Virus genome (UHGV): UHGV-0212009
Reading direction: 5' to 3' (one strand)
DNA length: 64,000 nt
From: a virus
The notes beneath the pieces are model-generated. The model was not told where the DNA came from and made no database searches. It saw only the letters and a list, made by a program, of their open reading frames with translations. Shown piece after piece: positions 3,970-43,910 of the stretch; the first letter of the stretch is position 1; each line of letters begins with the position of its first letter. The position numbers were made by a program, and so were the translations under genes.

Positions 3970-3977
3970 GGCTTTCC

Positions 3978-15792: not shown

Positions 15793-15819
15793 TTTTCTTG
15801 TAGAAAGTAACTAACTTTG
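15789..15819 (+). promoter_or_regulatory. Promoter upstream of ncRNA array
   Basis: TTG-N20-TAACTTTG. Confidence 0.7.
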
Positions 15820-23848: not shown

Positions 23849-23890
23849 GTAAAATTAGACCGCTTGTTGTAAGTTTGCTGACGACCTTTG
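23849..23890 (+). promoter_or_regulatory. Putative late promoter copy 3
   Basis: GTAAAATTAGACCG-N20-GACCTTTG. Confidence 0.7.
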
Positions 23891-23916
23891 GTGGAGTACT
23901 TTTAATATATGCATAT

Positions 23917-24447: not shown

Positions 24448-24450
24448 AGC

Positions 24451-25638: not shown

Positions 25639-25641
25639 ACT

Positions 25642-28600
25642 ATGGAGACATACAATAAGAAATACAAGATTGTCGCTCCTGATGGATACGTCGAGGAGTG
25701 GTCGCAAGCGGATTTTGAAAAAGGCGGAGCAGCGCTTATGTCTGATAATCCGGACGTCAAAGTATATAGTCAAGAATCATACGACCCGACGCAGCAGTAC
25801 GGAACGAATGTAGCGTATGGCATCGAGGACGAAGACGGGTATTTTGAATCATGGACTGCTGATGAATGGAGTAAAGGCAAAGATGCATTGCTTAAGGACC
25901 ACCCAAACCTCAAAATATATGTGCTTGGTGATGCCTCTCAGGACTATCATCGTCAAAAAGCAGAAGAACAGCGCCAGGCCATTACTGATTTTGATGCAGC
26001 GAATAAGGACTTTATTCGCGCACATGAGCTTGATTCGCTCATAATGAGTGAAGGCGGTGCAGTTAGTGCAGATTATGACGCTAACGATAAAAAATATAAT
26101 GATCTTCTTGCGGAGCGAGAGCAACTCGTATCGAACTATGCGACCAACCCAGCAAACAGGCAGGATTGGAGTGTAAGTGCCCAGTATGCAGACCAGATTG
26201 CATCCAATTATGAATCTAAACTCAAAGGCATGCGTGATGCTACGCGTTTCAGCAACGCTGCGACATCTATGTACTCTGGCAATATTCGTGAGAATAACGA
26301 CTATGTGTTGTACGAACAGGCGCGTAAACTTGCAAAGGACGCAGCGAAAGCTTATGCAGCACCTTCTTATGGTGAGCACACCGGCTTTGGTGGTTATGTC
26401 AAGGATATGGGCACAGGAGCTGGCAAAGTGTTTAGCGATGTTGACTTCTGGAGTCGTGGCTTATCTGCTATTGACCGAGATAAAAATGTGCGTAAGATTG
26501 TCAACTCGCTGTCTGAAAAAGGTATAAATGTTTTGGAGGCTACGGAAAAAGAGTTGTACGACAATCTTTCTCCGGCACAGATAGCTCTTATATCATCATT
26601 CTTGTTGGATGCTCAGGCACAATATGAGCGCTCGCTTGATACTGCTCGTGGATACAATGCCGGTGTCACGTTTGCGGAGTCCATAGGATATATGGCCGAG
26701 TTCCTTGCTACGGGCGGAATCGCGCGTGCTGTTGGCTCTGCCGGAAAGGCCGCATCGTCCGGGTTCGGCAAGCTGCTCGCAAATGAGCTCTCCAAAGGCA
26801 GCGAAGCGGCAATTAAGAGCAAAGTGTCACGGGGCCTAATTAACACCTTTACCAAGGGCGGCACAAAGTCTTTGAGCAAAAATGCAAAGGCGGCTACAAA
26901 TATAGCAAGCAAGGCAGCCGGAAAGGCATATTCTTATGGCATAAGACCAGCAGAAAGCGCTATATGGCACACAGCTCTGCAACCGTCCACATATAGAACC
27001 ATATCCGAGAATCTTACACAAATTAATGATAACGGTGATTTGGTAAAAGCCGGCTCCGCTATCTGGGGTGGAGTTCTCGACCAACTAATTGAAAACTGGT
27101 CCGAATCTATGGGTGGAGCCGTAGAGGACATTCTCGGACTGCCGCTCAAGGGCGTTGGCGCTGCTGGCGAGAAGATACTTGGCAAGACAACCCTTGGTCA
27201 GTGGGGGAAGTGGTTAGCAGATTCAGCGAGCGCCAAAGTACTGCACGAGGCAGGATTCAACGGTCTTATAGGTGAAATGGGAGAAGAGTGGCTTGGTAAT
27301 GCGGCTCGTGTTGGCCTTGACCTTATGACAAAGGATGAATTTAAGGACTTTGCCAGCTTCGAGTCTCAAGTGGATATGGCCGCATCTTTCGCGCCTATGA
27401 CCCTTTTTGGCCTTGGAACGTCATCATATGCAGCAGCCAAGCAAGATAAAAACTATAGAAAGCTTGCAAAAGACATGAGAGGCGTGCTTAATCGAGCCGG
27501 CTGGAGTGAGGAAGATGTAGCCGACGTGATGGATGTCAAGCACACAAAAGAGGAGATAGCTCGGACTCTTGCTCCAGTACTGCAAAGCATTGTCAGAAAT
27601 TCCCAAGACGGGAAAGTGGCACAAGAGGATTATATAACTACGCTTAAGTTCGCCCAGGCAGCAGCAATACAAGAAGTGCTTTCTTCCGCTCAGACAATAG
27701 AGCAGGAACGCGCTCGAAAAGAAATGCAAGAAGAAATCGCGCAGAACCTTGGAGCCGTGCCGCAAGAATTTAAGAATGAGGACGGGACTACTGTAATATA
27801 TCCTACCGACAATAGAGGAAACTTCTCATATACGCAGGTTGAGCAAACCCCTTCCGGTAATTACGGTGTAAATGTAGTAACGACCGCTAAGGATGCTAAA
27901 GGAGAGTATTTCGTCATTCCGGATGATGATTCGGATACAATGCTGCTCAAAAACCGTAACGATGCTAATGCGACACCTCGCTTTATAAGTCGCCAAGAGT
28001 TTCAAGAGCAAGTTGATGCCGGCTTAATGACAACGGAGACATCAACTCTTGACAATTATCTGGATGCAAGGATTGAAGAAAAACGCGAAATACAGCGCAA
28101 GGACGCCGAGAACGCGCAACTTGAAGACAAGTATCAGCAGGTAGCACAGAAGATGCAAGTCGGTTCTAAAATCAACGCCGGCACCGAGGATGCCCCTATG
28201 GAGGGCGTTGTGCTTGCCGTGGATAGAGGTGGCGTAACTGTTGATTTCGGACAGCCAGTGCTGTTGAATGGACGCAATATGCAAATCCACAAATTGTCAT
28301 TAGAGCAAGCAGGTAATTTTGTTGGTATTGATGCGCGGATAGAAAGCGAGCAGCGCTCAGTGGAAGAACAAGTGGAACAAGACGAGATTAATTCCGCCAA
28401 AGTAAAGGCTTACAATCAGTCACTTGCCGGTGAGCAGTTTACCGTTGACGGACATCTGTATACATATGTTCGCATGTTTGAAATGCCACAATTGGATGAG
28501 GATGGAATCGAAATAGCTCATATAGTGGCTACTGATGAGCAGGGACGAGATGTTGAAATGGACATTCCTTTGGAAGACATCAAAACGAGAGAGACAGATG

Positions 28601-31600
28601 CGGCCGTTAAAAACAACGAGCAGGTAGAGGAGGTAAAGGACGATAATGTGCTGCGTGACATCCATGGAAATCCTATCCCAATGCGTGTTAATGAAAAAAC
28701 GCAGCAGGAGGAGGTAGATAAACGTACCTTCAAGAATAAAGATCCTGAGGCATATTATGCCTGGAACGACGCTCAAAGAGGTGGCAATACTGAGGACTCC
28801 ATGCAGGCTATAACGGCTGATATTGCATCAGAAACGGCCCAATTGACCGCGTTACAGAAGCAGCTGACCGTAGAGACGGACCCTGATATGCGAGACGAGT
28901 TGCACGAGAGTGTCAATAAAACACAGAATCGAATCAATCTTCTTGAAGGCATATATCATAAATACGATGCTGAGAACAATTTCCAAGATGAACAACTAGA
29001 TTTTGCAAGACGCATTTATGACGTACAAAGCAAACTAATCAATGCCAAGACACAGGAACAAGTAGATGCGCTTATCAAGATTAAGGCGGACTTATTCCGC
29101 CAATATCAGCTCGCCACAGTGGATTCGGCAGAAAATGTAATGTTGGCCAAGAGAGCTGTTGAATTGCAGCAGGTGATTAATTCCGTTGCGGATGTCCCTG
29201 TGCAAGTAGTGTTTGAGAGTAATATAGAAGCCGTTATGCGTACAGATGGCGCATCCGAGGCAAGTATAAATCGCGTATTAAGCAAAGTGGCCGAACTGAG
29301 AAGTGCCCGTATTACATCGGGCAAAGACCTGGTTATGACCGGTTTGTATAATGAAGGCAAAGTTTATATCTTTGCTGAAGGTAATACTGATGCTTCTTCG
29401 GCTCTTTTGACCTACTATCACGAGAGGCAGCATATGCGTACTGCCGAGGATCCGGAAGCAATGAATAAGGTCCTTGTTCTTGCCAGAAATGAGCGAGACA
29501 ACCTCATACAGGTACTTAGCCTCTTGACTGATAATATCGCTCCGTATCAGGGCGCCAATAATCAGGAATTGGCGGACGAAATTGTTGCCTCCGCAATGGA
29601 AAAAGCATGCACGGACGAGAAATACGAACAAACACTGCGGAGCCGTGGTTTAAGTGAAGAATTAATCAATATAATTAAAACAGAATATGCAAAACAACGA
29701 AGAATTACAGACAGTGACGCTGTTCGACAGGAAGACTGGAATGCGAATGTCCGTACAAGTGACACCGGAAACGGCCAACAAGATGGCGCAGTTGAGCAAG
29801 GAGCATCCGGAAATGGACAGTTGGGCACTGCACAGCTTAGCACTGACACAGGAATAAGCGAAGAGGAGCCTCAGGTAGACACAACTCCACGTGATTTCCG
29901 TGGTAATCCACTTCCGCTCGAAGCAGACGGGACTACTGTTGATCAAAAGACCCTTTGGGAGAACGACCCGGAAGCCTGGGCTCGATGGAATGACGACATT
30001 AACAATGATGCCGGCGCAGACTCTATTGCATACATTAATGCAGTAATAGAGAAACTGAATAAAGCCATAAAGACCAACGAAAAGGCCTACGCTAAGGCTA
30101 CAGACTTCGATAAGCGAGACACGCTCAAAGGGCAGATTAAGGAAGAAAAGCAAAGACTGGACGAACTTCAGGCTATTCTTCGTGCATATCGTCAGAAGCA
30201 AAGCGAAGAGGCTAGCGCTAAAATGCAAGCCGACGCTGTGCGCGCAAGGGAAGCACGTAAAGCAAAGGCGGAGGAACTTGCGAAGTATAACACGGAATCG
30301 CTACAAGACGTCAAGAGAAAGTGGGAAGATGCTCCGAAGGATACCGGTGATGTGGATTCAATTGTTCTTGCTAACGGTGAGCGTATTGAGGGACATTATG
30401 TTCTCACGGAAGCATTTGCGCCTACTCCGTCACATGATCCTGTAGCCGGATACTCAATGACCAAAGGTTTCCCGGTTGATGAAAACGGCAATACTGTCAA
30501 CGACCGCGATTATCAGCATGACAAAGAAGCGCAGAGATTGGTCGAGCAGAAGGCATCATCATTTGACCAGCGGGCCCTTCAGACACCTGTAGTAGTAAGC
30601 AGCGACGGTGTTGTTCTATCAGGCAACGATAGGACAATGGCATCACAAATAGCAGCTCGACAAGGGACTGATAATAATTATAATACTTACCTTGCATCCC
30701 ATCCTCAGCGATTCGGATTTACGGCGGATCAAATTTCTAACTATAGCAATCCGCGTGTAGTATTTGTTCCCGACGCGCCAATGCCTTATACGGCAGCTAC
30801 GTTTGCCAAGTTCAATGCAGAGGAAAAAAAGACACAATCCAAGACCGAGAGCGCCGTCAAGGCAGGAAAGACAATCTCTCCGGAAGCAGTTGAGCATATT
30901 GCAATGATTGTCAACGAGCATGAATCAATCGCTGAGACCTATTCCGACAAAAATGCTGTAGCCGCTATACTCAGAATCCTTATTGATTCTGGTGTTGTTC
31001 AGGAGTCAGAGATTAGCCGCCTTATGGACGGAGATTCGCTATCTGGTACGGGAGAAGACCTTGTGGAAAGCGTTATCCTCGGTGCCGTGATGCGAGAGGA
31101 CGCGCTTAGGTGCGCAATGGGCGACAAGATGATAAGGCGGAGCGTAATGTCTGCTCTCACCCAGCTTCTCAAGAACAACACATACGGAGAGTATTCGCTT
31201 TCTGGAGAGTTCTCCGACGCGGTTGTGCTCTTGTATCAGGCCAAACGCAGCGGACTTGTCGAACCGGGAGAGAGTGTAGCAAACTTCATGAATCAGCCGG
31301 TTCTTGATGGATTCGGAGAGAATCCGCTTGCGGAGGTCACCGTGCAGATGCTTGCGAACACAATCAACGGAACGAAGGTCAATGGACTGAAAAATGTTCT
31401 ATCTTTATATAACGCAAGGGCGGAAATGGCAGCATCGGGACAGGCGGATTTGTTCCTTGGTTCCGTTGAGGCTAAAGAGCAAATTATCAGAGAAATACTC
31501 AATGAATATGGATACAACACAGAAACCTTCACAGCAGCCGCAGCAGAGCAGCGACCAGGACAACAATCCGAACAGCAATCAAAGCAAGGAAGTTCAGAAG

Positions 31601-34600
31601 AACAAGCTCCTGATGCTGTTTCAGGCGATGCAGGAAGCGGAGCAGAAGAAATAAACCAAGTTCGGGCGATTGAGGAACAACGAAAAGTTGTAGACACCGA
31701 GCCAACCGAAGCGCAGAAAGAAGCGGGTAATTATCGCATGGGCCACGTGCGAATAGATGGATTGGATATTACCATAGAGAACCCGCGGGGCAGCATACGT
31801 AAAGGTACAGATGCAGACGGTCATGAGTGGCAAACCGAAATGCATAATGACTATGGGTACATCCGCGGCACCAAGGCTGTGGATGACGACCATATTGATG
31901 TGTTCCTGTCAGACAACCCTACTCGGGGCAAAGTGTATGTTATCGACCAAGTGGATCCGAAGACCGGAGAGTTTGACGAGTCCAAGGTTATGTATGGCTT
32001 TGATTCGGAACAGGACGCAAGGGAAGCTTATCTGTCCAATTATGAAGATGACTGGCAAGGCCTTGGTAAAATCACCGAGGTTAGCAAAGAAGAGTTCAAG
32101 AAGTGGATTGATTCGTCCACACGGAAAACCAAGCCATTCAGCGAGTACAAGAGCGTAAAGCCTGAAAGTTTAGAGTCTCCAAAGACAGGTGCATTTGGAA
32201 CTATATACACCCAGTTCAAAGGCAAGCCACAAGAAGCTATTGCTTTCCTCCTCGAAAAGAAAGAGGGTGAAGCTGTGGGGGCATTGCACCATAAAGACAT
32301 TGGCGACATTGATTTGGTATGGGGAAAAGAAGGAACCGCCAAAAGCGACGGCTTTGGTCTTGCCAAACTCGCGAAATATCATCCAGAAGTTCTTGGTAAC
32401 CTGCAAGAGATACTTGATGCTATGGTTGTTGTCGATCGCACAGACAATCGTGTGCAACTGGAAAGCGAAACACACCAAGCATCAGTACGTCTAACATGGG
32501 ATAGTGAGAAAAAGAATTGGTTGCTTACTGCCTTTGAAAAGAAAAACAGTGTCTCCGACAATACGACAGACACTGTAGGAACCGCTGAAAGCGGCAAGCG
32601 GAATGACACAGCTACTCCGCAAAACACTGTTTCTGACGGCAAATTTACACAATCTTCTGAAGCAAAGCAAGAAAACGGAGAATTATCTGACTTCGCGACC
32701 GAAATATTTAACGACACACTCTCTGGTATTCCAGAGGAAGTAAGGGCACGTGTGACTGTCCGTGAAAGCAGCACGGGGGATGAAGTCGAAGAGAACTTCA
32801 TACAGTCCTATGACCTCGATGGCAAGCCGTCCGGAATCAGCAGGGTGGAACTAATCGATGCCAAGATAGACGAAAACCCGACAAGGTTTGTCATAGACGG
32901 TTCCGATGTTGACGCACCGAAGCCGGAACAAGAGCGGTGGCAGCGACTTGCCGATGAATATAAACAACTGAATCCTGAAGTAATAATCATTGACTGGGAG
33001 GAATCTGGCATCAGTTTTAGAACTTTCAGGGAGGCTTTGGATTTCCTTTCTTGGGCGGAATCATTCGACAAAGAGAATGATGCGGTTTCTTCTCAATCCT
33101 CTTATAAAAAAAATGAGCCTTTGAATAAAGCAGAAGATTCTCGTTTCCGCATAGTGGAGTCGACAGACGAGGAAATTCTTTCGGATTCGAATCAAAAAGA
33201 TTCAGAATACTTTGCTGCTATAGAACGTGGAGACATGGAAGAAGCGCAGCGTATAGTGAATGAATTTGCGCAGAAAGCAGGTTATACGACTATTTCTGAT
33301 TACCAAGGGACATCTGCATTTAATGGTGCAGCACCCTATGGCAACCCTTACTTCCTCACCAAGGAAGAACGTAAGGATGCCTGGGATAATGATGAGTTTG
33401 AAGGAGACCAGACATTAGGCGATTATATAGAACGGGGTATCGATGCGAATAACCTCGATTTCGTAGCCTTGGACCCTCGTAATTATCGTGCCGCCAACTC
33501 TATGCGCAAGGAGGCTATTGACAACGTGCGTAATGCCATCCAGAAGAGGAGCAAAACTATAACTATGTTTCGCAGTGTTCCTTCCGAAATAAAAGAGGGT
33601 TCGTTTAGAAATGGCGACTGGGTGACTCCAAGCCGTGCTTATGCGGTAGATAATGCCAAAATTCACGGTTGGGGGGATAACTATAATATCATTAAACAAA
33701 CGGTATCTGTAGACGAAATATGGTGGGATGGTAATGATATTGCTGAATGGGGCTATGGTCGTGAAGAAGATTATGTGAAAGACACAGACTTTGCCTATAA
33801 AAATACAAAAAATAATCGTAAGCTGCTTGATGTTATTACTCGTGATGATAAGGGGAATATAATTCCGCCGTCCAGAAGATTCGACTCGGGCAATGCGGAT
33901 GAAAGATACCAGATTTCTGGCAGGAAAGCCATCGACAAAAGTTCAGAAGAATCCAGAATCGCATACGAGGCTGTGAAGGAGCAACTAGATAGGATAGGAA
34001 TCCCTGTGGAATTGCTGTCGGATCAGGCGATGAGAGAAATGGCTATAAACGCAAATGCACTCGAAACCGTCTCCTCTCAAGATGAGTATCAACAAACCGT
34101 CGTTTCAAGTGCATCTGGAGCAAAGGTAATAAATAATTTGGATAATCTGGCTAAATCTCTTGAAAATGAGCCCAAAACTAAGGAGAAGACATTTTTGGGG
34201 GCATTAGCAAAAGCTCTTGATGCAAAGAAACACGGGAGCAATAGCCAGTATGCAACATTCGAAGCAAAGAATGGTACGGTTGTTACTATCAGACTTGCGA
34301 ACCACAATGTCGCTACTTCAACCTTTGATAACCATGGGGAGAATGATGGTATTAGTATAGTGGTTAGTGCTAGAAAGAATAATGGAATAATAAATGATGG
34401 CAAGGCTCATGTGACTGAATTCTATTACGATGCTATCAAACTTCGAAAAGCAGAGGGTAAACCGCTTGTAGATATAGTCAAATCTGTCAAGCAGTCTCTC
34501 TATAGTGGGGAATACAAGGACACCACTGGGCTTGCACAGCGCGAAGAGGTCAACGCCAAAGATGTGCCGGAATTTATGACCGTCTATCATGGCAGCGGTG

Positions 34601-37600
34601 CCAAGTTCGACAAATTCGACCACTCCCATATGGGTGAGGGTGAAGGAGTCCAGGCATATGGCTGGGGAACATACGTCACCGAGGTCGAAGGAATCGGTCG
34701 GACATACGCAAAGGCTATGGCCGCCAAAAACGACGGAGCTCTGCCGAAACGCAATCTTTACACCGTAGAAATTCCGGAGGATATAAATTCAGCTCTATCC
34801 AAGGATGAGATTTTGAAGGGGCTCGATAGTCTTGGCAAAGAATTATTTTCAGGATACGGCTTGAATGATGTGCAAATCAATGCTGTGTTCGGGACAACGC
34901 GAGAGTGGTATAAGTACGGATACACTGCAACAAGTGGCTTCTTTCCTCTAAAAGAAGCATTTAAGACCTATGGAATCGATGCAGAAACTATAGACAAGAG
35001 AATTCATGACGAGGCAATGGAAGACCGGCAAAAAAATCCAGCGGGATATGGATTTTACTTGAATTGGGCAGGTAGAATAGACATGTGGATTGAGAAGTTG
35101 GGTATCAGTGAGGATGAGTATGAACGCTATGACATGGCGACCGGCAGGGATGCATATCGTTATCTTGAGAGTAAACTAGGGGGCGCAAAAGAAGCCTCTG
35201 ATTATTTGTCAGATCACGGCTATGTTGGAATATCCTATCCAGCGCAGTACAGGTCCGGTGGGCGTTCTGATGGAGCCAGGAACTACGTCATCTTCAATGA
35301 GAATAACGCGAAGATAGTAGACCGCATCGAATTTCTGCGTGAGCCTGACGGAACAGTGTATGGCGCGACGGTGGGAGGAAAGATTTATCTCAATCGAGAG
35401 CGTCTGAATCCGAACACTCCAATCCACGAATACACCCACTTGTGGTTCTCCGCATTGAAAGACGCAAACCCTGAACTTTACAAAAGAGGCGTTGAGCTGA
35501 TGAAGCAGCTGCCTATATGGGAGGAAGTCAGGACTGACCCGAATTATGCGAACCTTTCTGGAGACGATGCGATAGCGAGCGAATGTCTTTCCCGCCTCGT
35601 CGGTGACAAGGGAGCGGATGTCCTTACAAAAATGGCTAAGGACGCGAATGTCAGGGGCGACATCATTGGTACGGCAAACAGAATTTCACTCATCGAAAAA
35701 TTCAAGGACTGGCTGAAGAAGTTCTGGACTTGGGTAAGGGATTCATTTACCCCATGGACTAAAGAAGAGGCTGCAAGGGTGTCAGTGGACGACATCCAGA
35801 ACATGGTGCTTTCTGACTTGGCAAAGGGTGTAAATCCTTTGGCCAACGCTCGGGAGGAATCAGAAATGAAGAAGACGAACGATAAGTACAATGATGACGA
35901 TTTTGAATATCTCATTAAGCGCAATCCTGGATCATTCGATGCTCCGGAAAACGGTATACGGTTCCGTATAGTTACCGAACCAAAACTAATTGAACAGCTA
36001 AACTTGGAGCCTACGGTAAAGGTATTCAGGGCAATGCAGATTGTTGATGGGGAACTCTTTCCTCCAATGTCGATTACAGTTAACGGTAAAAAACGCGAAC
36101 CATCAAAGATTGGACAATGGGAGCAGAGCGAAGAAAATCCGGAACTTGCTGACGAGGACGGATATTTCAAACTGAATAAGGGTAAAAACGACAATGGGAA
36201 GAATAAATCTCTGAAGGCAAAATATAACCCTTATTTCCACACATCATTGTTTCCTCTGAATGACCAGTTCAGCGAGGCGCAAACTCGTAGCAACATTGTT
36301 ATTGTTGAAGGCCGCGTACCAAAGAGTGAATTAACATCCGGCTATCGTGCTGAAAAGGCGAAGAATTCCGTTGGTAAGATGACTTGGCATTCCGGGCCTA
36401 TTGCAGGTATTCTTGGACAATATGAAGGCAAAGAACGTGAAGTTATCCTCTCTCGTTGGTTCAAGCCAGAAAGAATCGTTCCATACGACCAAATTGCTGA
36501 CCTTTCTGTCCAGATGTTCAAGGGGACCTCTCTTGAAAAGAATCCTCTTCCGTCGAATGTATTCCATCCCGATCTTCGAAATGAACTTGAGAAACGCGGC
36601 GTATCATTTGTGGAAACCAATAATCGGGGGCAGCTTCTTGATGATGCGGAAGGCCGGACTTGGTCCTCTCTTTACGGAAAGGAGGCTGCTGGCAAGAAAG
36701 CAAGAGTTGAGGCTAAAGAGCAGGATGTTGTAGACATATTCTACGACGAAGAGATGGAATTAGCTAATAAAATATTCAATAAGGAGCTGCAACAACAGAT
36801 TGATGGTAAGCTACCAAGCGACCATATATATAGAATGGGACAACCAGGAAGAATATTGCTGTCAACTGGTGTGCCAGATTTGCCTATACAAATGAACGCT
36901 TCAAGGCTTAAAACAAAAGCTACATCATATGGGCATGACTTTGAATTGAGTGAAATAAAGGATTTGGTAAAAGCATTGCAGACACCTTTGGCAGTATTCG
37001 CGTACGGTGATAAGTCAAAAGCACAGAATATAATTGTCCCATTGCAGAAAGACGGAAAGAATTTCATAGTCGGTTTGTCGCTCAACCCGACAGTTGGAGG
37101 AAGAAGCCTTGAAATCAACAGTATAAGGAATGTGTTCCCAAAAAACAACTATGAATGGTTGAATTGGATAAGCCAAGGCAAGACGTTGTATTTGAACAAA
37201 GAAAAAGTTCAAACCCTCATAAACCAACAGCGAACGATTCTCGCTGACGTGGAATATCTGGATTTGAACTCTGTTGCGAATATAGTAAAAAGCTTTGAGA
37301 ACCCAAGCGGTAATGAGAAAAATATTAAGGCTGCTGGCAAGAAGGTTGTCAAGACTCTTGCTGGTGTCCATAATATTACAGAAGAAAAACTTCGTAAGGC
37401 CCTAAAGTTAGGAGGCTTTGCCAATCCGAGTCTCGCCGTCATTGATACGGAGAAGAGCAACCATGAGAATTTCGGAGAGATTTCGCTGATAGCTCCGTCG
37501 GCTCTTGTTAACAAGGAGAGCGGCCGTACAGCTGGTACGTGGACTACTGATGCCTATACTCAGCGTTATCCTTCCGTGGAACGTCAGATGAGCGACAAAG

Positions 37601-40600
37601 GATATGAGGAGTTCTCTAAGTGGGTGGACGGTCTTGACTTTACAGACAGCGAAAAGGCTGAGATAAAGCGTCAGACAACGGATGCCCTTGAGGACAACCG
37701 TGAACCTGCCTGGGAGCTGATGTATCTGAAGGAAAAGGGTATTGACATCAAGGCGTATAGTTCTGACGTGAGCTATGGTTGGGAACCTGTTGCCGAGACT
37801 TATGGGAGTGTGGATGATGTGCTGAAAGCTATGGAGGGTGACGCAGAATTGGACGAGAAGATTCGGAACCTTGTCAAGGTAGAGATTGCTTCTCCATTGT
37901 TGAGCACAATCAGAAACACGATACGTCTTCAGATTTATGAAGAGACAGGCAAAGTGCCAAGTTCTTTCAATCTTGCTGTAACAAAAAGAGTACATGAGAT
38001 ATTTGACAAAGAGTATGCACCGAAGCTCTTTGACGAGAACGGTCAGGTAAAGTCGGAAGATGTCCGTAAGGTCGTTGGGGAAATGCTGGCAAAGTATAAT
38101 GACACTAAGCGTTTCAACTTCCAGAAGGCTAAGGCAAGGGCAAGTACTTATGTGCATAACAATGGAATGTATACAGACTATCTGAGATGGCAGGAAGAGA
38201 AACTTGAAGATTACGGCACAAAGGGCAGGATATTCCGTGGATACAATAGCGACGGTACTCGACGTTATTCTCCAGAGACTCTTGAGAACGTATCAAAGGC
38301 TATGTCGGAAAACGCTGAGGGCGAGACGAATGGCAGTGAGTATACCTCATTCGGTAGTTTCATCGCTAAGTTGGCTCCTCATGTAGACAGTACTGAGGAG
38401 ATGCGTAGCAGGAAGGACAAGTTGTCATCAGCAGACGATGAGAAGAAGGAATTCTACGACAAGTGGGAGGATACCTATTATGCTCTTGCCAAGGAGCTTT
38501 ACGATGATGTCTACTATGGCGAGAAGCGACTTCATGAGATCGTTTTGCAGCAAGACCCAAAGAGATACGCCAAGAAGGAATACGGCATCACGCTGAGTGC
38601 ATCCTTCATGAAGAATCTGGAGGCCCTAAAGAAGGCTATACGTGAAGACTTGAAGAGTCCGTACTTTGAGACCAAGTTTGAGCGTCCTGTGGGTTTGAAC
38701 GAGTTTGCGGCTGCTGTTGTGCCAGATGATTTGGGTGCTGACGTGAGGAAAATGTTGGACGAATCCGGCATTGCCTTGTATGAATATGACCCTGCCAAGG
38801 AGGGTGACCGCAGTAGGGCATTCAATGAGGCTCTTGAGGGTAATGATAAGATTCGCTTCCGTATCGTCGGTGGTAATAGCGGATATGTGGGGTACTCAAT
38901 GAGCAAGAGAGCGGCAGAGGCAAAGGAGGAAGGTCGTTTCCCTAAAACACAGTTCGTAAAGGAATATGGTGTGCCGGCTGCGCATCTTGATGCTCTCGTA
39001 GCTGCTGGCATTATTAGCAATGATGAGTGGCACCATACATCTAAATTTGGCAATAAAACTCCTTTCTATGGCTGGGTAGAGGATAGCTTCCTGCAAGCCT
39101 ATAATGACAATAAGGCCGCTATAGAAGAGATCATCGAACAGTATAATGGGACAGATCCTCTTTCTTTTACGGAAAGGCGGAAACTTACGGAAAAGATTGC
39201 GGCCATTATAGAAAGTTCAGAGAGCGTCGTATCAGCAAGAGAGCCGGCGGAGGCACTAATCGCTCAACGCGAAGCCGAGAAGGCCCACAGGCGCGATGTG
39301 ATGTCTGAAATGGCCAACAGCGATGGAAAAATCAAAAAGTCTGGTAATGAATATTGGTACAATGCAGATAATCAAGTTTCATTACACATGCACGATAATG
39401 GCCGGATTATAGATCTTGAATTCCCAATTGGCACGAAGACGCAATCTCAAAGGGATGAGTTATATAAGGCTGCCCAAGAGGAGTTCCGCGAAGCTTATGA
39501 GCGCGCAGAAAAGATCCTCCAGGATAAGGAGAACGAAAACTTCGAAGAACCAAAGCAGACACCCGATGTGGAATCTTCCGAAAGTCGTTTCAGGGCTGTT
39601 AAGTCATACGACGGATTACAGTCGTTTGGGCAAGACAAGCTGTTTGACATCATGCACAAGACTTTTGCGGATCTCCCGGAAAGCACGCGAGCCAAGATTA
39701 CAAAACTTGCCCCTGCTCATGGGTACAAGTTCCATGAAGCGACGGCTGATTACTTTGCATCCCTGGCGACCAAAAAAGACTTGTCCGAGGAGGAAAAGAT
39801 GGATGTTATGGTGGTACGCGATAACATAAAAGCCGCATTGGATATTGACTGTTTGTCGTGTAGTGAGACTCTTTGGGCTCTTTATAATACGGTTAATAAA
39901 AACTCTAAAGACATTCTTTCAATCGCACGTAGGACTCTTGTGGCGGATAAACTTGGCTTTATGCCGGAGGACAGAAGCAAACGAGATGATGTCAAAGATG
40001 GCGTACGTTTCTCAATCCGAGAGAACTCTCATGATGCATCTGCCGCGGAGATTTACAACAAGGCAACGTCTTATTGGTATAATCGTCTCCGAGAGAGTTA
40101 TGTCGATATGAATGAGTCCGTAAACGACCTTGTGGCCGCTATTGAATCGACTACCAAGCAGCCGGCACAGGCGTTTGAGGATGTTAGGCTTGCCATTAAT
40201 CGTCAGTCTTCCAAGGGTCTTAATCAGATGACAAAGTTCATGTCTGACTATTTGGAGCCAATGTGGGGCGCTGTCGGCAAAGTGATGGAAACTACAGGAA
40301 TGACCTACGATGAAGTCGTGCGTTATGTGATGCTCAAGCATGCGGTAGAGCGTAACGATGTATTTGCTCGTAGAGATGCACGGCGGTTCTATGAGAGGAA
40401 GTGTGATTCCATTATCAGCAAACTGAAGGACGAGAAAAAGCAGAAAGAGAATATGCGGAAGAGAGCAATGGCTAATGCCGAAATATCTATCGCATATGCG
40501 CTTGATCAGGAAATCCAAAACATTGATAAGCGAATTGATTCTGCTTTGAAAGCTCTTGACCGCCAGCTTGTGAAGGTTGATAATGGGACTTCGACCAAGT

Positions 40601-43263
40601 ATAAAGAACTCCGCGAGCAGGATTATGGCGGATTGACTTCTATGTATTCGAAGTATCCTGGGCTTGGTGCGCGTTCTGATTATGCAACTGATGAAGAGTA
40701 TAATAAGGCTGCGAGAAAGATAAGAGTGCCTATGTATGATAATGTATCAGACATGGAGAATGCTGCCAGAAGCGAAGTCAACGCCTTTGAAAAGCGCACT
40801 TCCGGAGATGAGTTTAATGAGCTGTGGCGCAGAATCAATGCCGCTACGAAAAAAACTCTTGAAAGCCAGTACGATAATAACATAATATCGAGGGAGCAAT
40901 ACAAGGCTGCACGAGACCAATTCAAGTATTATGTCCCATTGAGGGGATTCAAGGATACGGAAGCCGAAGATATATGGACATATATGGATGTTAGTCTTTC
41001 TGGTAGTTTTGCCCCTGCTCTCAAGAACGCTAAGGGGCGCAAGAGCGAGGCGGAAAATCCATTCAATTGGATTGGCACAATGGCTTCATCTGCCATTGCT
41101 CAGAACGTCAAGAACGAAGCAAAGCTTGCACTTTATTATTTCATTGCAAATCGCCCTAATCAGGACTTGGTAACGATTGGTAAGGTGTGGTATCAGTATG
41201 ATGCAGCAGCAACGGCAGCGCACGCAGCAGCAAATCCGGGTGACACAAAGAAGATATTCACACCGGTTTACCCTCCTGTCACAACCGGGCTTGACAGTAA
41301 TGCGGCCAAGGACGCATACGATACGTGGGAAGCGGATATGAGAGCCAAAGCTGCTGCTGGAGAAGCTTATCAGAGAACCAATAAACTCAACGTACAGGAT
41401 GATGTGGCGTTTATCAGTGATAAGCAGATACCACAACATGTGATTAAACTCAAAGTACGCGGCGAAGAAGTGAACCTGTACATCAACGGCGATCCAAGGG
41501 CAGCACAAGCTATCAATGGAATGCTGAACGTAGAGACCAACAGCGGATACCAGAAAGTGTTCGGGCCTATTCTTCGTTGGATGTCAGCCGTAAACACCAG
41601 TTACAACCCTGAGTTCTGGATTTCAAACTTGCAGCGAGATTTCTTGTTCGCATTAATGTCTTCCTCGATTACAGGAGAAGGAGCGAACAATCTGCTTAAG
41701 GGATTTGTTAATCCGAAGAAGATTATGCAGATGATGCGTGATTACGAAGCTGGAAAACTTGGCAATAGCAGAGAAGAAAATTATTACCGCGAATTTGCTG
41801 AGGGAGGAGGTATCACCGGCTTTACTGTTATTGTCGGCAATGAAGTCTGGGAGAAGAAAATTCAGGAATACTTAAATCCGTCCGATTTTGCTAAGATTTC
41901 AAAGTCTATCAAGTTCGACAAGTTCCTTAAATTCTTTAACGATCTTGGCGAAGCAGTTGAGCAGATGTCCAGATTTGCAGCATTCATTGGTGCCAGAGAG
42001 ACGGGAAAGAGTATAGAGGAAGCCGTGGCCGCATCAAAGGAGATTACGGTTAATTTCAATAGAAAAGGCTCCGGCAAGGCTGTTGACTGGGCGGATTTGG
42101 ATAAGCTTACTACTGCCGATGGTGCGAAACTTAATAAGGCGCAGAAGCTTGCCGTATTTACCGCTTCATTCATTCCTGCTTATGGAAGACGCTTTATAAT
42201 GTTCTTCAATGCGGCTGTACAGGGAGCAAATGCTATGTATAAGCTATGGAAAAAAGACCATCGCAAGACGCTCGCCTGGGCATCAGGATATTTTGCGATA
42301 GGCGTATTGCAGGCCGTCTTACATGCTCTCGCGGATGACGATGATGATTATCTTGATATTCCGGACTACACCAGACGAAGCAACCTTCTTCTTGGAGGTG
42401 GCGGTATTTATTTCAAGTGGGCATTGCCACAGGAAATGAGACCATTCTATGCGTGGGGGGATATTTTTGTTAATCAAGTTATGGGCAGGGAGCCTAATAA
42501 GAACATGCTGCTTGAGATGGCGAATTCTGCTGCTGACATATTACCGTTGGGGCCGGGAGGCGTCTTGCCGTCCGTTATACAGCCTTCATGGGACCTGTAC
42601 ACGAATAAAGACTTTACCGGAAGTCGGATTTACAATGACAACAAGTACCGCTCCGATGCAGAGCGTGAAGCACGGCCGAACTATAAGGATCCGCGTCCTC
42701 AGACGAATAAACTCTTCATCGATATATCACAGGTTCTTAATGCGCTGAGCGGAGGTGACGAGTATAGTGCCGGAGCTGTGAATGTTCACCCTGAATCGAT
42801 GCAGCACGTCGTTGAATCCCTTGGTGGTGGTTTACTTACAACCATGAATAAGACGGAAGAAACCGTAGCGGGGGCTCTGGGGGCCATTATTGGTGAGGAT
42901 ATGATAGACCAGGACCTTTCTGTGCGGCGGTTCCCGTTCCTTAATCGCGTCCTGATGGTCAATGATGAGCGTACTCGCAATTCTCATGTATCGGATTTGT
43001 ATTATTACTACAAAGATATGTCCGACGTGGTGGAGGATAAGATGCGTAGGATGAAAAAGGAGATGAATTATGATGCTCTTGAAAAACTGCAAAACAGTCC
43101 CGAATACGAGGTTTATCAAATCGTCAAAAGCTATAAGAAGATGATGCAGCGATATGACGATGATTTGAAAGCCGAAGAGGATCGTAATGAGCGCAAGAAT
43201 ATAATGCAAGAACAAGACGAGTTGCGAAAGGAGATGATTAATGAAATATCTCAAACGCGATAA
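25642..43263 (+). CDS. Giant polyvalent protein (5873 aa)
   Basis: By eye: two HExxH zincin motifs (29419, 35425), DdrB/ParB-like (~30370-30850), inorganic pyrophosphatase-like (~31700-32160), PBECR-like (~32190-32545), ART-like YHGS (~34580), MuF-C-like (~36760-37200), LPD38-like C-terminus. Confidence 0.9.
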   Translation: METYNKKYKIVAPDGYVEEWSQADFEKGGAALMSDNPDVKVYSQESYDPTQQYGTNVAYGIEDEDGYFESWTADEWSKGKDALLKDHPNLKIYVLGDASQDYHRQKAEEQRQAITDFDAANKDFIRAHELDSLIMSEGGAVSADYDANDKKYNDLLAEREQLVSNYATNPANRQDWSVSAQYADQIASNYESKLKGMRDATRFSNAATSMYSGNIRENNDYVLYEQARKLAKDAAKAYAAPSYGEHTGFGGYVKDMGTGAGKVFSDVDFWSRGLSAIDRDKNVRKIVNSLSEKGINVLEATEKELYDNLSPAQIALISSFLLDAQAQYERSLDTARGYNAGVTFAESIGYMAEFLATGGIARAVGSAGKAASSGFGKLLANELSKGSEAAIKSKVSRGLINTFTKGGTKSLSKNAKAATNIASKAAGKAYSYGIRPAESAIWHTALQPSTYRTISENLTQINDNGDLVKAGSAIWGGVLDQLIENWSESMGGAVEDILGLPLKGVGAAGEKILGKTTLGQWGKWLADSASAKVLHEAGFNGLIGEMGEEWLGNAARVGLDLMTKDEFKDFASFESQVDMAASFAPMTLFGLGTSSYAAAKQDKNYRKLAKDMRGVLNRAGWSEEDVADVMDVKHTKEEIARTLAPVLQSIVRNSQDGKVAQEDYITTLKFAQAAAIQEVLSSAQTIEQERARKEMQEEIAQNLGAVPQEFKNEDGTTVIYPTDNRGNFSYTQVEQTPSGNYGVNVVTTAKDAKGEYFVIPDDDSDTMLLKNRNDANATPRFISRQEFQEQVDAGLMTTETSTLDNYLDARIEEKREIQRKDAENAQLEDKYQQVAQKMQVGSKINAGTEDAPMEGVVLAVDRGGVTVDFGQPVLLNGRNMQIHKLSLEQAGNFVGIDARIESEQRSVEEQVEQDEINSAKVKAYNQSLAGEQFTVDGHLYTYVRMFEMPQLDEDGIEIAHIVATDEQGRDVEMDIPLEDIKTRETDAAVKNNEQVEEVKDDNVLRDIHGNPIPMRVNEKTQQEEVDKRTFKNKDPEAYYAWNDAQRGGNTEDSMQAITADIASETAQLTALQKQLTVETDPDMRDELHESVNKTQNRINLLEGIYHKYDAENNFQDEQLDFARRIYDVQSKLINAKTQEQVDALIKIKADLFRQYQLATVDSAENVMLAKRAVELQQVINSVADVPVQVVFESNIEAVMRTDGASEASINRVLSKVAELRSARITSGKDLVMTGLYNEGKVYIFAEGNTDASSALLTYYHERQHMRTAEDPEAMNKVLVLARNERDNLIQVLSLLTDNIAPYQGANNQELADEIVASAMEKACTDEKYEQTLRSRGLSEELINIIKTEYAKQRRITDSDAVRQEDWNANVRTSDTGNGQQDGAVEQGASGNGQLGTAQLSTDTGISEEEPQVDTTPRDFRGNPLPLEADGTTVDQKTLWENDPEAWARWNDDINNDAGADSIAYINAVIEKLNKAIKTNEKAYAKATDFDKRDTLKGQIKEEKQRLDELQAILRAYRQKQSEEASAKMQADAVRAREARKAKAEELAKYNTESLQDVKRKWEDAPKDTGDVDSIVLANGERIEGHYVLTEAFAPTPSHDPVAGYSMTKGFPVDENGNTVNDRDYQHDKEAQRLVEQKASSFDQRALQTPVVVSSDGVVLSGNDRTMASQIAARQGTDNNYNTYLASHPQRFGFTADQISNYSNPRVVFVPDAPMPYTAATFAKFNAEEKKTQSKTESAVKAGKTISPEAVEHIAMIVNEHESIAETYSDKNAVAAILRILIDSGVVQESEISRLMDGDSLSGTGEDLVESVILGAVMREDALRCAMGDKMIRRSVMSALTQLLKNNTYGEYSLSGEFSDAVVLLYQAKRSGLVEPGESVANFMNQPVLDGFGENPLAEVTVQMLANTINGTKVNGLKNVLSLYNARAEMAASGQADLFLGSVEAKEQIIREILNEYGYNTETFTAAAAEQRPGQQSEQQSKQGSSEEQAPDAVSGDAGSGAEEINQVRAIEEQRKVVDTEPTEAQKEAGNYRMGHVRIDGLDITIENPRGSIRKGTDADGHEWQTEMHNDYGYIRGTKAVDDDHIDVFLSDNPTRGKVYVIDQVDPKTGEFDESKVMYGFDSEQDAREAYLSNYEDDWQGLGKITEVSKEEFKKWIDSSTRKTKPFSEYKSVKPESLESPKTGAFGTIYTQFKGKPQEAIAFLLEKKEGEAVGALHHKDIGDIDLVWGKEGTAKSDGFGLAKLAKYHPEVLGNLQEILDAMVVVDRTDNRVQLESETHQASVRLTWDSEKKNWLLTAFEKKNSVSDNTTDTVGTAESGKRNDTATPQNTVSDGKFTQSSEAKQENGELSDFATEIFNDTLSGIPEEVRARVTVRESSTGDEVEENFIQSYDLDGKPSGISRVELIDAKIDENPTRFVIDGSDVDAPKPEQERWQRLADEYKQLNPEVIIIDWEESGISFRTFREALDFLSWAESFDKENDAVSSQSSYKKNEPLNKAEDSRFRIVESTDEEILSDSNQKDSEYFAAIERGDMEEAQRIVNEFAQKAGYTTISDYQGTSAFNGAAPYGNPYFLTKEERKDAWDNDEFEGDQTLGDYIERGIDANNLDFVALDPRNYRAANSMRKEAIDNVRNAIQKRSKTITMFRSVPSEIKEGSFRNGDWVTPSRAYAVDNAKIHGWGDNYNIIKQTVSVDEIWWDGNDIAEWGYGREEDYVKDTDFAYKNTKNNRKLLDVITRDDKGNIIPPSRRFDSGNADERYQISGRKAIDKSSEESRIAYEAVKEQLDRIGIPVELLSDQAMREMAINANALETVSSQDEYQQTVVSSASGAKVINNLDNLAKSLENEPKTKEKTFLGALAKALDAKKHGSNSQYATFEAKNGTVVTIRLANHNVATSTFDNHGENDGISIVVSARKNNGIINDGKAHVTEFYYDAIKLRKAEGKPLVDIVKSVKQSLYSGEYKDTTGLAQREEVNAKDVPEFMTVYHGSGAKFDKFDHSHMGEGEGVQAYGWGTYVTEVEGIGRTYAKAMAAKNDGALPKRNLYTVEIPEDINSALSKDEILKGLDSLGKELFSGYGLNDVQINAVFGTTREWYKYGYTATSGFFPLKEAFKTYGIDAETIDKRIHDEAMEDRQKNPAGYGFYLNWAGRIDMWIEKLGISEDEYERYDMATGRDAYRYLESKLGGAKEASDYLSDHGYVGISYPAQYRSGGRSDGARNYVIFNENNAKIVDRIEFLREPDGTVYGATVGGKIYLNRERLNPNTPIHEYTHLWFSALKDANPELYKRGVELMKQLPIWEEVRTDPNYANLSGDDAIASECLSRLVGDKGADVLTKMAKDANVRGDIIGTANRISLIEKFKDWLKKFWTWVRDSFTPWTKEEAARVSVDDIQNMVLSDLAKGVNPLANAREESEMKKTNDKYNDDDFEYLIKRNPGSFDAPENGIRFRIVTEPKLIEQLNLEPTVKVFRAMQIVDGELFPPMSITVNGKKREPSKIGQWEQSEENPELADEDGYFKLNKGKNDNGKNKSLKAKYNPYFHTSLFPLNDQFSEAQTRSNIVIVEGRVPKSELTSGYRAEKAKNSVGKMTWHSGPIAGILGQYEGKEREVILSRWFKPERIVPYDQIADLSVQMFKGTSLEKNPLPSNVFHPDLRNELEKRGVSFVETNNRGQLLDDAEGRTWSSLYGKEAAGKKARVEAKEQDVVDIFYDEEMELANKIFNKELQQQIDGKLPSDHIYRMGQPGRILLSTGVPDLPIQMNASRLKTKATSYGHDFELSEIKDLVKALQTPLAVFAYGDKSKAQNIIVPLQKDGKNFIVGLSLNPTVGGRSLEINSIRNVFPKNNYEWLNWISQGKTLYLNKEKVQTLINQQRTILADVEYLDLNSVANIVKSFENPSGNEKNIKAAGKKVVKTLAGVHNITEEKLRKALKLGGFANPSLAVIDTEKSNHENFGEISLIAPSALVNKESGRTAGTWTTDAYTQRYPSVERQMSDKGYEEFSKWVDGLDFTDSEKAEIKRQTTDALEDNREPAWELMYLKEKGIDIKAYSSDVSYGWEPVAETYGSVDDVLKAMEGDAELDEKIRNLVKVEIASPLLSTIRNTIRLQIYEETGKVPSSFNLAVTKRVHEIFDKEYAPKLFDENGQVKSEDVRKVVGEMLAKYNDTKRFNFQKAKARASTYVHNNGMYTDYLRWQEEKLEDYGTKGRIFRGYNSDGTRRYSPETLENVSKAMSENAEGETNGSEYTSFGSFIAKLAPHVDSTEEMRSRKDKLSSADDEKKEFYDKWEDTYYALAKELYDDVYYGEKRLHEIVLQQDPKRYAKKEYGITLSASFMKNLEALKKAIREDLKSPYFETKFERPVGLNEFAAAVVPDDLGADVRKMLDESGIALYEYDPAKEGDRSRAFNEALEGNDKIRFRIVGGNSGYVGYSMSKRAAEAKEEGRFPKTQFVKEYGVPAAHLDALVAAGIISNDEWHHTSKFGNKTPFYGWVEDSFLQAYNDNKAAIEEIIEQYNGTDPLSFTERRKLTEKIAAIIESSESVVSAREPAEALIAQREAEKAHRRDVMSEMANSDGKIKKSGNEYWYNADNQVSLHMHDNGRIIDLEFPIGTKTQSQRDELYKAAQEEFREAYERAEKILQDKENENFEEPKQTPDVESSESRFRAVKSYDGLQSFGQDKLFDIMHKTFADLPESTRAKITKLAPAHGYKFHEATADYFASLATKKDLSEEEKMDVMVVRDNIKAALDIDCLSCSETLWALYNTVNKNSKDILSIARRTLVADKLGFMPEDRSKRDDVKDGVRFSIRENSHDASAAEIYNKATSYWYNRLRESYVDMNESVNDLVAAIESTTKQPAQAFEDVRLAINRQSSKGLNQMTKFMSDYLEPMWGAVGKVMETTGMTYDEVVRYVMLKHAVERNDVFARRDARRFYERKCDSIISKLKDEKKQKENMRKRAMANAEISIAYALDQEIQNIDKRIDSALKALDRQLVKVDNGTSTKYKELREQDYGGLTSMYSKYPGLGARSDYATDEEYNKAARKIRVPMYDNVSDMENAARSEVNAFEKRTSGDEFNELWRRINAATKKTLESQYDNNIISREQYKAARDQFKYYVPLRGFKDTEAEDIWTYMDVSLSGSFAPALKNAKGRKSEAENPFNWIGTMASSAIAQNVKNEAKLALYYFIANRPNQDLVTIGKVWYQYDAAATAAHAAANPGDTKKIFTPVYPPVTTGLDSNAAKDAYDTWEADMRAKAAAGEAYQRTNKLNVQDDVAFISDKQIPQHVIKLKVRGEEVNLYINGDPRAAQAINGMLNVETNSGYQKVFGPILRWMSAVNTSYNPEFWISNLQRDFLFALMSSSITGEGANNLLKGFVNPKKIMQMMRDYEAGKLGNSREENYYREFAEGGGITGFTVIVGNEVWEKKIQEYLNPSDFAKISKSIKFDKFLKFFNDLGEAVEQMSRFAAFIGARETGKSIEEAVAASKEITVNFNRKGSGKAVDWADLDKLTTADGAKLNKAQKLAVFTASFIPAYGRRFIMFFNAAVQGANAMYKLWKKDHRKTLAWASGYFAIGVLQAVLHALADDDDDYLDIPDYTRRSNLLLGGGGIYFKWALPQEMRPFYAWGDIFVNQVMGREPNKNMLLEMANSAADILPLGPGGVLPSVIQPSWDLYTNKDFTGSRIYNDNKYRSDAEREARPNYKDPRPQTNKLFIDISQVLNALSGGDEYSAGAVNVHPESMQHVVESLGGGLLTTMNKTEETVAGALGAIIGEDMIDQDLSVRRFPFLNRVLMVNDERTRNSHVSDLYYYYKDMSDVVEDKMRRMKKEMNYDALEKLQNSPEYEVYQIVKSYKKMMQRYDDDLKAEEDRNERKNIMQEQDELRKEMINEISQTR
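29687..29857 (+). CDS. Candidate overprinted 56-aa ORF (+1 frame)
   Basis: AT-rich leader AATATAATTAAAACAGAAT-ATG; MQNNEELQTVTLFDRKTGMRMSVQVTPETANKMAQLSKEHPEMDSWALHSLALTQE. Confidence 0.5.
   Translation: MQNNEELQTVTLFDRKTGMRMSVQVTPETANKMAQLSKEHPEMDSWALHSLALTQE
31508..31654 (+). CDS. Candidate overprinted 48-aa ORF (+1 frame)
   Basis: MDTTQKPSQQ...KNKLLMLFQAMQEAEQKK spanning a linker of the giant protein. Confidence 0.4.
   Translation: MDTTQKPSQQPQQSSDQDNNPNSNQSKEVQKNKLLMLFQAMQEAEQKK
32537..32670 (-). ncRNA. Candidate antisense sRNA A with promoter and terminator
   Basis: TTG-N20-TAAATTTG (32670-32640), internal hairpins, ACAGTGTCT/AGACACTGT stem and U-run. Confidence 0.65.
34047..34128 (-). 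ncRNA. Candidate antisense sRNA B
   Basis: TACCTTTG (34128-34121), 13-bp closing stem 34055-67/34102-14; weak -33 and weak U tail. Confidence 0.5.
37198..37306 (-). ncRNA. Candidate antisense sRNA C with promoter and terminator
   Basis: TTG-N19-TATATTCG, AGTTCAAA/TTTGAACT closing stem, inner CAGCGA/TCGCTG, U-run. Confidence 0.6.
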
Positions 43264-43275
43264 CTGACCAAAAAT

Positions 43276-43305
43276 TTCCCGGCTTGTAGTCGGGGAGTTT
43301 TTTTT
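43276..43305 (+). terminator. Intrinsic terminator
   Basis: TCCCGGC/GTCGGGG stem plus T8. Confidence 0.85.
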
Positions 43306-43401
43306 ATACGTACGGACAATCCGCATTGTCTGTAAATTCTCAGTACGCCTTTCCCGATATTCGCAAGTCTGAGTTGCGGAAGTGAATCTTAATGTTATAA
43401 T

Positions 43402-43443
43402 GTAAAAATAGACCGCTCGCTGCAAATGTCTCTTTTACTTTTG
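43402..43443 (+). promoter_or_regulatory. Putative late promoter copy 4
   Basis: GTAAAAATAGACCG-N20-TACTTTTG, 5 nt before ATG. Confidence 0.8.
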
Positions 43444-43448
43444 TTTCC

Positions 43449-43910
43449 ATGGAGATAAAGGTTAAAAGAGCTTGGAAGGAAGCGACATACACAGTCGGTA
43501 AGTTCTTTATCGACAACATTCGTTTTGGCGATAGTATGGAAGATGCTGACAGGAACCTGTCGGCCGATATGCCGTTATCTGAAATCAAGTCTTGTAAAGT
43601 ATATGGGGAGACAGCTATTCCTAAAGGACGGTATGAAGTTAAAATGACGTTCAGTGCGAAGTTTGCTAAACGTTCCTGGGCGGTACCCGAAAAGGGAATG
43701 GTCCCAGAAATATGTAACGTACCAGGCTTTAGTGGTGTCCGCATACATCCTCTTAACTGCGCTGCTGATTCTCTTGGGTGTATTGGTGTTGGACGCAATG
43801 ACCGCAAGGGCTGGATCTCCCAATCTCAGGCTTATTACAGACAATTAGTTGAAAACCATATTCTTCCTGCTATCAAGCAAGGAGAAAAGATTTATATAAC
43901 GATTGAATGA
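43449..43910 (+). CDS. DUF5675-like putative endolysin
   Basis: KVYGETAIPKGRY, VPGFSGVRIH..N...DSLGCI.VG; heads lysis cassette. Confidence 0.75.
   Translation: MEIKVKRAWKEATYTVGKFFIDNIRFGDSMEDADRNLSADMPLSEIKSCKVYGETAIPKGRYEVKMTFSAKFAKRSWAVPEKGMVPEICNVPGFSGVRIHPLNCAADSLGCIGVGRNDRKGWISQSQAYYRQLVENHILPAIKQGEKIYITIE

Follow-up and report, generated by a model that had tools for sequence, protein, structure and literature searches.

The window analysed here is the whole 64,000-nucleotide (nt) stretch of the virus genome UHGV-0212009. Its integrase (2695-3987), T7 gp14-like gene (23875-24447) and P22-like portal (45912-47894) identify it as a phage or prophage. A giant gene is located two genes 3' of the T7 gp14-like gene and 5' of the portal gene, and its uninterrupted open reading frame (ORF) matches seven Pfam polyvalent-protein families: ddrB-ParB, InPase, PBECR1, ART (a weak match), MuF_C, PBECR5 and LPD38. 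Large and built of many disparate conflict domains, the giant protein is an ordinary representative of the polyvalent proteins with PBECR, MuF-C and LPD domains, as these are described in the available text of Iyer et al. (2017; PMC5512222). The gene order and that study suggest that it is likely an internal virion or ejection protein, its packaging being predicted. The T7 gp14-like gene and a 395-amino-acid (aa) gene directly 5' of the giant gene (23875-25638) follow the order of podovirus ejection proteins. Three units lie on the minus strand inside the giant ORF, each with a -7 promoter box, an RNA whose ends pair and a U-rich tail. Unit A follows PBECR1 and unit C follows MuF_C, both predicted ribonuclease (RNase) domains, and unit B precedes an alpha/beta domain called IRLANH here (Table 1). 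By sequence comparison, each unit behaves like a genuine RNA gene under selection that is tied to its own domain, with predicted transcription.

Table 1. Giant gene, antisense units and neighbouring domains (positions in the window)
Feature	Position	Strand	Details
Unit A promoter motif	32640-32670	-	TTG 32670-32668, 20-nt spacer, TAAATTTG 32647-32640
Unit A predicted RNA	32536-32636	-	closing stem, three hairpins, U-tail
Unit B -7 box TACCTTTG	34121-34128	-	overlaps AKV, first IRLANH residues; -33 element degenerate here
Unit B predicted RNA	34047-34117	-	16-bp closing stem, variable interior
Unit C promoter motif	37277-37306	-	TTG 37306-37304, 19-nt spacer, variant box TATATTCG 37284-37277
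Unit C predicted RNA	37197-37273	-	rod, 13-bp closing stem, apical CAGCGA/UCGCUG hairpin, U-tail
Giant polyvalent protein gene	25642-43263	+	5,873 aa, uninterrupted ORF
PBECR1 predicted RNase domain	32188-32550; Pfam core 32281-32550 (aa 2214-2303)	+	Pfam; His65, Thr114 of domain
IRLANH domain	34120-34563	+	unnamed, alpha/beta; invariant Ser42, Tyr44, Arg58, His62, Glu100
MuF_C predicted RNase domain	36736-37212; Pfam core 36919-37212 (aa 3760-3857)	+	Pfam
PBECR5 domain	37348-37761	+	Pfam; lacks a unit, a negative case within the gene

The initial annotation had proposed three such units within uninterrupted coding sequence, and all three are found at the positions it gave. The layout it described applies to each of them with two departures: the box of unit C is a variant, mostly TAYCTTTG in homologues, and the tail of unit B is weakly U-rich in the window, with a T run in most homologues. 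The closing stems contain 14 base pairs (bp) in unit A (32634-32542), 16 in unit B (34117-34052) and 13 in unit C (37272-37204). Three of the pairs in A and two each in B and C are G-U and form on the minus strand only. The self-closing RNAs are 66-93 nt long and lie 6.9-11.6 kb from the start codon of the giant gene. In unit A the closing stem is followed by a hairpin with an AGCnGUGYC loop, a variable hairpin, a hairpin with a GUCYGUC loop and the U-rich tail, both loops being conserved. The tail of unit C reads TTCTTTG. Pfam confirmed the placement of A after a PBECR domain and of C after a MuF-C domain. The further claim that a putative nuclease domain adjoins every unit is borne out by these two family matches and not by IRLANH, which matches neither a Pfam family nor a solved fold.

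Codon shuffling, a check named at the outset, gave a null model for the units. In 300 synonymous-codon shuffles of the giant ORF, units were scored as a box plus an end-closing stem. TAnnTTYG boxes taken alone do not exceed chance (13 on the minus strand against a mean of 14.3 in the shuffles). Boxes with stems are enriched: the minus strand of the giant ORF holds three units scoring 15, 12.5 and 12. Units scoring at least 9 numbered none, one, two and three in 238, 56, 6 and 0 of the 300 shuffles, and the top score reached 12 or more in 2. Folding z-scores for A, B and C are -3.5, -3.5 and -6.4 on the minus strand and -2.9, -2.0 and -4.4 on the plus strand, with boundaries that were picked after the units had been seen.

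The units belong to particular domain families. In viral homologues with identities from 99% to ~30%, the unit is kept while the flanking domains vary: A stays after PBECR1, C after MuF_C and B before IRLANH. For counting, we took distinct homologous copies in the fetched loci and defined a unit as a Bacteroidota box with a stem score of at least 7.5; the counts are of sequences, not independent events. A unit was found 3' of MuF_C in 24 of 25 copies and 5' of IRLANH in 40 of 43. This Bacteroidota-only rule detected a unit 3' of PBECR1 in 64 of 117 copies and a box in 78, in a set that has non-Bacteroidota hosts and shorter stems. Beside other domains in the same loci no unit was found: InPase (0/61 and 0/57 copies), ART (0/13 and 0/31), ddrB-ParB (0/9 and 0/6), the FRSVP domain (0/17 and 0/23) and PBECR5 (0/17 and 0/24). 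A metallopeptidase has a unit upstream in 4 of 34 copies, and these are likely owned by the adjacent RNase domain. The giant protein of Bacteroides phage BF1-TP2 comprises InPase, ART, PBECR5 and LPD38 only; this phage shows four boxes, and no stem reaches a score above 7. Four more conserved domains of the giant protein in the window (32701-33120, 33142-33900, 35902-36720 and 38842-39399) have no Pfam match and no RNA unit.

Over the loci, the stem score is at least 9 at 104 of 261 antisense boxes and at 9 of 128 sense boxes, a ratio biased by the selection of loci around A, B and C. A, B or C account for 92 of the 104, and two more are A units overlooked through frame breaks. Pfam analysis of eight of the remaining ten found LPD3 (twice), LPD13, PBECR3, PBECR2 (twice, one below the cut-off) and two domains without a family, one of them likely a chance case. 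PBECR2, PBECR3, LPD3 and LPD13 are further unit-bearing domains. In Burkholderia phage phiE131 (L424), a PBECR3 domain fused to the portal carries an antisense unit with a sigma70-type promoter, and the pairing therefore extends beyond giant proteins. L418 and L419 contain stand-alone PBECR3 genes (open frames of 145 and 192 aa) with a convergent non-coding unit past the stop codon. The PBECR3-linked RNAs of L418, L419 and phiE131 have a common CGTTTYGSACGT-like motif. The MuF_C query had no match in the phage or plasmid collections searched, the PBECR3 query had none in the plasmid collection, and samples of apparently Bacteroidota genomes gave few matches (2 of 301, then 1, 4, 3 and 2 of 251).

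Unit A has the properties of a conserved structured RNA. Its alignment comprises the window and 37 of 56 non-redundant sequences; the other 19 were dropped as near-identical to the window, very divergent or uncertain in their starts. All 18 consensus pairs have compensatory changes in this alignment, which is not corrected for relatedness, and 89% of the alignment cells pair, compared with 60% when shuffled and 38-53% when slid. The AGCnGUGYC and GUCYGUC loops are retained from Bacteroidota to Pseudomonas phages, including Itty13. In a codon alignment of 76 sequences, the mean frequency of the commonest third base is 0.81 in the linker (6 four-fold sites) and 0.37 in the domain (27 sites). The unit A family thus combines covarying pairs with nucleotide-level constraint, the outcome expected of the covariation and synonymous-site checks proposed initially; the boxes and stems are likewise conserved in homologues. 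For units B and C, every sequence has its own closing stem with differing letters. In L055, L415, L418 and L419 the unit lies past the stop codon, which rules out protein constraint as the cause of conservation. Rfam gave only six chance-level matches in window positions 25000-44000 (E 1.9-4.7) and nothing at E<=1 in 20 related loci.

The promoter motif changes with the host. TAnnTTTG is the -7 box of Bacteroides and Flavobacterium, according to the available text of PMC7641319. We surveyed PBECR1 in 79 genome loci grouped by record title, of which two were excluded as too short. In Bacteroidota-titled loci, an antisense TAnnTTTG lies 75-150 nt past the domain in 37 of 41 cases (controls: sense 0/41, upstream 1/39). 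Clearly non-Bacteroidota loci have TAnnTTTG in 0 of 28 and a sigma70-type promoter in 20 of 28 (controls 0/28 and 2/26). Eight ambiguous loci, in which Bacteroidota-like phage sequence stands under titles of the kind Oscillibacter, Treponema or 'bacterium', were set aside; seven of them have the Bacteroidota box, and counting them as non-Bacteroidota would give 7/36. Among named phages, the box after PBECR1 is TACAAT in Bordetella BPP-1, TATATT in Sinorhizobium PBC5 and Pseudomonas Itty13, and TGCTATAAT in a Campylobacter phage; in Burkholderia phiE131, TTGAAA and then TACTAT occur 3' of PBECR3. A second element not used in selecting the units, a -33 TTG located 18-22 nt upstream of the box, is present in 70 of 73 PBECR1, 21 of 24 MuF_C and 21 of 40 IRLANH units, compared with 3, 0 and 0 in one control window and 6, 0 and 8 in the other. 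From these sequence patterns, the box behaves as a promoter matched to the host phylum. TAnnTTTG boxes are also present in several intergenic gaps of the window. Those at 47977 (+) and 15756-15812 (+) have no long ORF immediately after them; the box at 47977 points towards a 694-aa gene of opposite orientation and could be the promoter of a further small RNA.

The domains beside A and C fit an RNase profile. In the available text of Iyer et al. (PMC5512222, section 19), a His in the N-terminal helix together with a C-terminal Thr/Ser is the pattern of active BECR RNases. PBECR1 has His65 in 75 and Thr/Ser114 in all of 76 sequences, and His67 is invariant in MuF_C (9/9); both domains combine a PBECR RNase profile with the His and Thr/Ser pattern. 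From the retained catalytic residues we infer that PBECR1 and MuF_C are active BECR RNases. The PBECR1 profile gave chance matches only against the PDB. The IRLANH model is confident (pLDDT 91), and the single-sequence model is poor. In fold comparisons its best VIA Z score is 4.7 (root-mean-square deviation 4.0, 100 aligned), with only weak restriction-endonuclease-like rows. No Foldseek match reached E<=0.001, and no protein of the BECR fold, a helix with a four-stranded meander, was among the matches listed; neither a Pfam family, a PDB sequence match nor an Atlas match was found. IRLANH is a candidate effector solely because it bears a unit. It is often inserted between the two halves of a metallopeptidase region.

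Some RNAs occur apart from their domains. Of the 96 viral loci returned by a search with the unit A loop pattern, 34 match the RNA model. PBECR1 lies 20-32 nt from the RNA in 21 of these; a second unit accompanies the domain in two, the domain is missing from ten, and one locus is truncated. The ten loci without PBECR1 are eight distinct ones, and the orphan RNAs of L323, L381 and L371 keep a perfect box. In Prevotella disiens (L306:1093-1520; G003:C168), three tandem promoter-RNA units lie 3' of one MuF_C, and the extra two differ in sequence and are preceded by short domain tails only. Orphan immunity arrays are known from polymorphic toxin systems, and the L306 array resembles them; it is possible that its tandem units form an orphan RNA immunity array with two non-cognate members. 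Arrays of this type may also be recombination debris. PBECR1-type RNAs occur as tandem pairs in L391:672-865 and L403:182-372, and a doubled RNA lies 3' of MuF_C in L307. Among 151 genomes of one family, the RNA model had two matches, both in the context of a polyvalent gene, and no free-standing chromosomal copy was found. In Pseudomonas phage Itty13 (L052; NC_070969.1, 7733-9301), the frame bearing PBECR1 runs opposite two annotated hypothetical genes, and the record therefore looks mis-annotated. In Sinorhizobium PBC5 (L051), the PBECR1 domain lies beyond the annotated end of a DarB-like gene. The proposal that each putative toxic module travels with its RNA agrees with covariation, synonymous constraint, host-matched promoter motifs, domain specificity and orphans, except that IRLANH matched no BECR family in the searches above.

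Several known systems resemble this arrangement in part. In canonical toxin-antitoxin (TA) systems of type III, a tandem-repeat antitoxin lies upstream of the toxin gene and is co-transcribed with it. Type III systems (ToxIN, CptIN, TenpIN; AbiF/RCd22, AvcID) likewise combine a predicted RNase with a dedicated structured noncoding RNA (ncRNA) on a mobile element. In contrast, the toxin here is a BECR-type domain within a virion polyprotein, and the RNA is a single unit on the opposite strand, inside or just past the ORF, with its own promoter motif and no tandem pseudoknot repeats; the canonical type III layout was rejected on these grounds. A ToxN, CptN or TenpN toxin with an Rfam antitoxin was also rejected, the Pfam families being PBECR1 and MuF_C and no Rfam match being credible. 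The nearest working analogue is AbiF/RCd22, in which, by the available account, a prophage RNase is neutralised by an ncRNA acting in trans through protein binding (PMC12373285). The mechanism of the units is probably type III-like.

In type I TA systems, the gene for a small RNA lies across from that of the toxin and often converges on its 3' end. The units share the position opposite the toxin gene, and their overlap in cis makes the RNA complementary to the toxin mRNA. They differ from type I in that the toxin is a folded enzyme domain of a 5,873-aa protein rather than a small peptide, that the RNA loops are conserved across phyla, and that the distance from the start codon gives a geometry unable to block initiation. 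MuF polymorphic toxins are likewise head-associated toxin domains of temperate phages that require self-protection, and the available text of Jamet et al. (2017; PMC5576092) reports a small downstream ORF as the immunity gene for 89.4% of 191 toxin genes. Here, instead, the toxin gene is overprinted by its partner, an RNA gene. In the portion of Iyer et al. (2017; PMC5512222) available to us, no RNA partner is named, the words 'noncoding' and 'antisense' are absent, and self-protection is left open. The accessible parts of a 2026 BECR preprint (10.64898/2026.08.28.747851) lack 'sRNA' and 'noncoding RNA', and those of a 2026 ncRNA-mapping preprint (10.64898/2026.10.21.760802), whose supplements could list intergenic copies, lack 'antitoxin', 'BECR' and 'MuF'. 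Our literature searches, with subscription papers and preprint supplements outside their scope, returned no paper on RNAs beside PBECR or MuF-C domains. The anatomy is without precedent in the literature searched.

The reading we lean towards, with modest confidence, is that the units are family-specific RNA antitoxins that bind virion-delivered predicted BECR RNases in a type III-like manner and are overprinted on the toxin's own gene. The cassette on the linker beside its domain would yield a 70-100-nt RNA that binds and blocks the neighbouring predicted RNase, with the conserved loops contacting the protein. The toxin would be a domain of the giant virion or ejection protein, predicted to be packaged and injected. 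Transcription of the RNA would rely on the housekeeping sigma factor of the host and be independent of the late genes; lysogens and producing cells would hence contain it, as would cells that phage DNA has just entered. An RNA gene on the linker would make toxin and antidote one in-frame, shufflable cassette, and overprinting would be favoured because a protein immunity gene cannot fit inside a polyprotein ORF. Orphan and tandem RNAs would confer immunity to the RNases of related phages. The initial annotation had confined restraint to the producing cell, which appears too narrow, as housekeeping-type promoters and orphan arrays also point to immunity of the lysogen or newly infected cell.

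A number of observations weigh against the antitoxin reading. In the available text of Iyer et al. (PMC5512222, section 19), the RNase activity of PBECR families is itself a prediction. A unit accompanies IRLANH despite its lack of a BECR match, whereas none accompanies PBECR5, which is called a nuclease. Consensus folds from plain alignments are weak for unit B (6 pairs, -0.36 kcal/mol) and recover only the apical hairpin for unit C. Although the catalytic residues are kept, PBECR1 loci lack a clear promoter in 4 of the 41 Bacteroidota cases and 8 of the 28 others. The box has decayed in the orphan loci L345/L405, and orphans may be recombination relics.

Four other explanations were weighed. 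The domain and RNA could form a working ribonucleoprotein, in which the RNA serves as an activating cofactor or guide and is made early to arm the injected domain. The strict pairing of one family with one RNA and the conserved single-stranded loops would suit such a role, the variable interiors of A and B might carry specificity, and a unit beside IRLANH, with its lack of a BECR match, would be accommodated. However, immunity accounts better for orphan RNAs and non-cognate arrays, the variable parts form base-paired hairpins, and the longest trans-pairing target of the RNAs in the window is 11 nt, at chance level. We consider this explanation unlikely. The RNAs had also been described as antisense small RNAs, and they are antisense in position. 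Every unit lies opposite the coding strand with perfect complementarity to the giant mRNA, and a type I-like RNA could pair with it and silence leaky toxin expression through cleavage or termination. A and C, however, would pair 3' of the toxin-coding part, kilobases from the start codon, B is directed away from its domain, and some units lie beyond the stop codon. Loops conserved across phyla are not needed for perfect complementarity, but both AGCnGUGYC and GUCYGUC persist from Bacteroidota to Itty13. The positions and the loops together argue against mRNA pairing; the RNAs most likely do not act in this way, and we regard silencing in cis as quite unlikely.

A role of the RNA as substrate of the domain, or as a decoy against host defence such as a tRNA-like bait, is improbable; its linkage with the domain would then serve shared counter-defence rather than inhibition. 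The folds are multi-arm, closed at the ends and about the size of a tRNA, and YGUC occurs in both conserved loops of unit A, presumably resembling the Asp anticodon loop. Against this, no tRNA consensus is visible by eye (no ARAGORN search was made), there is no Rfam match, and B and C are rods. Finally, the units are located at shuffling boundaries, as would be expected if no RNA were made and they were protein linker motifs or DNA hairpins marking recombination joints. Such an origin is very hard to reconcile with G-U pairs that are valid on the minus strand only, frozen synonymous sites, two correctly spaced promoter elements whose motif varies with host phylum, and units retained in non-coding DNA.

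The RNA antitoxin reading can be extended, tentatively, to a wider one that is possible but that we would not yet call probable. The units would represent widespread, unrecognised poison-antidote cassettes, in which injected RNases of at least six families (PBECR1-3, MuF_C, LPD3, LPD13) and a new fold each have a private overprinted RNA antidote. The antidote would be made only if the incoming DNA survives for the housekeeping polymerase, so that destruction of the DNA by restriction or CRISPR would poison the cell, and lysogens would gather orphan antidotes against rival phages.

To our knowledge, there has so far been no explanation for how phages produce predicted PBECR RNases safely, and the RNA units would offer a direct answer. 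The available text of Iyer et al. (PMC5512222) reports PBECR domains in up to 26% of polyvalent proteins. The units add several new RNA families, which intergenic screens would miss because they are hidden within coding sequence. A unit could also serve as a marker: the domain that carries it (LPD3, LPD13 or IRLANH) is probably a toxin or an RNA-binding effector. Cognate RNA-protein pairs could render the domains clonable and supply new RNA-controlled nucleases. If direct neutralisation is true, the systems may come to be classed within type III TA as a new branch, and even then their anatomy would lack a precedent in the literature searched. In gut Bacteroidota, cognate RNA-protein pairs could contribute a further layer of exclusion between phages, and RNA antidotes, if this reading is true, would let a phage carry and inject toxins without harm to the cells that hold its DNA.

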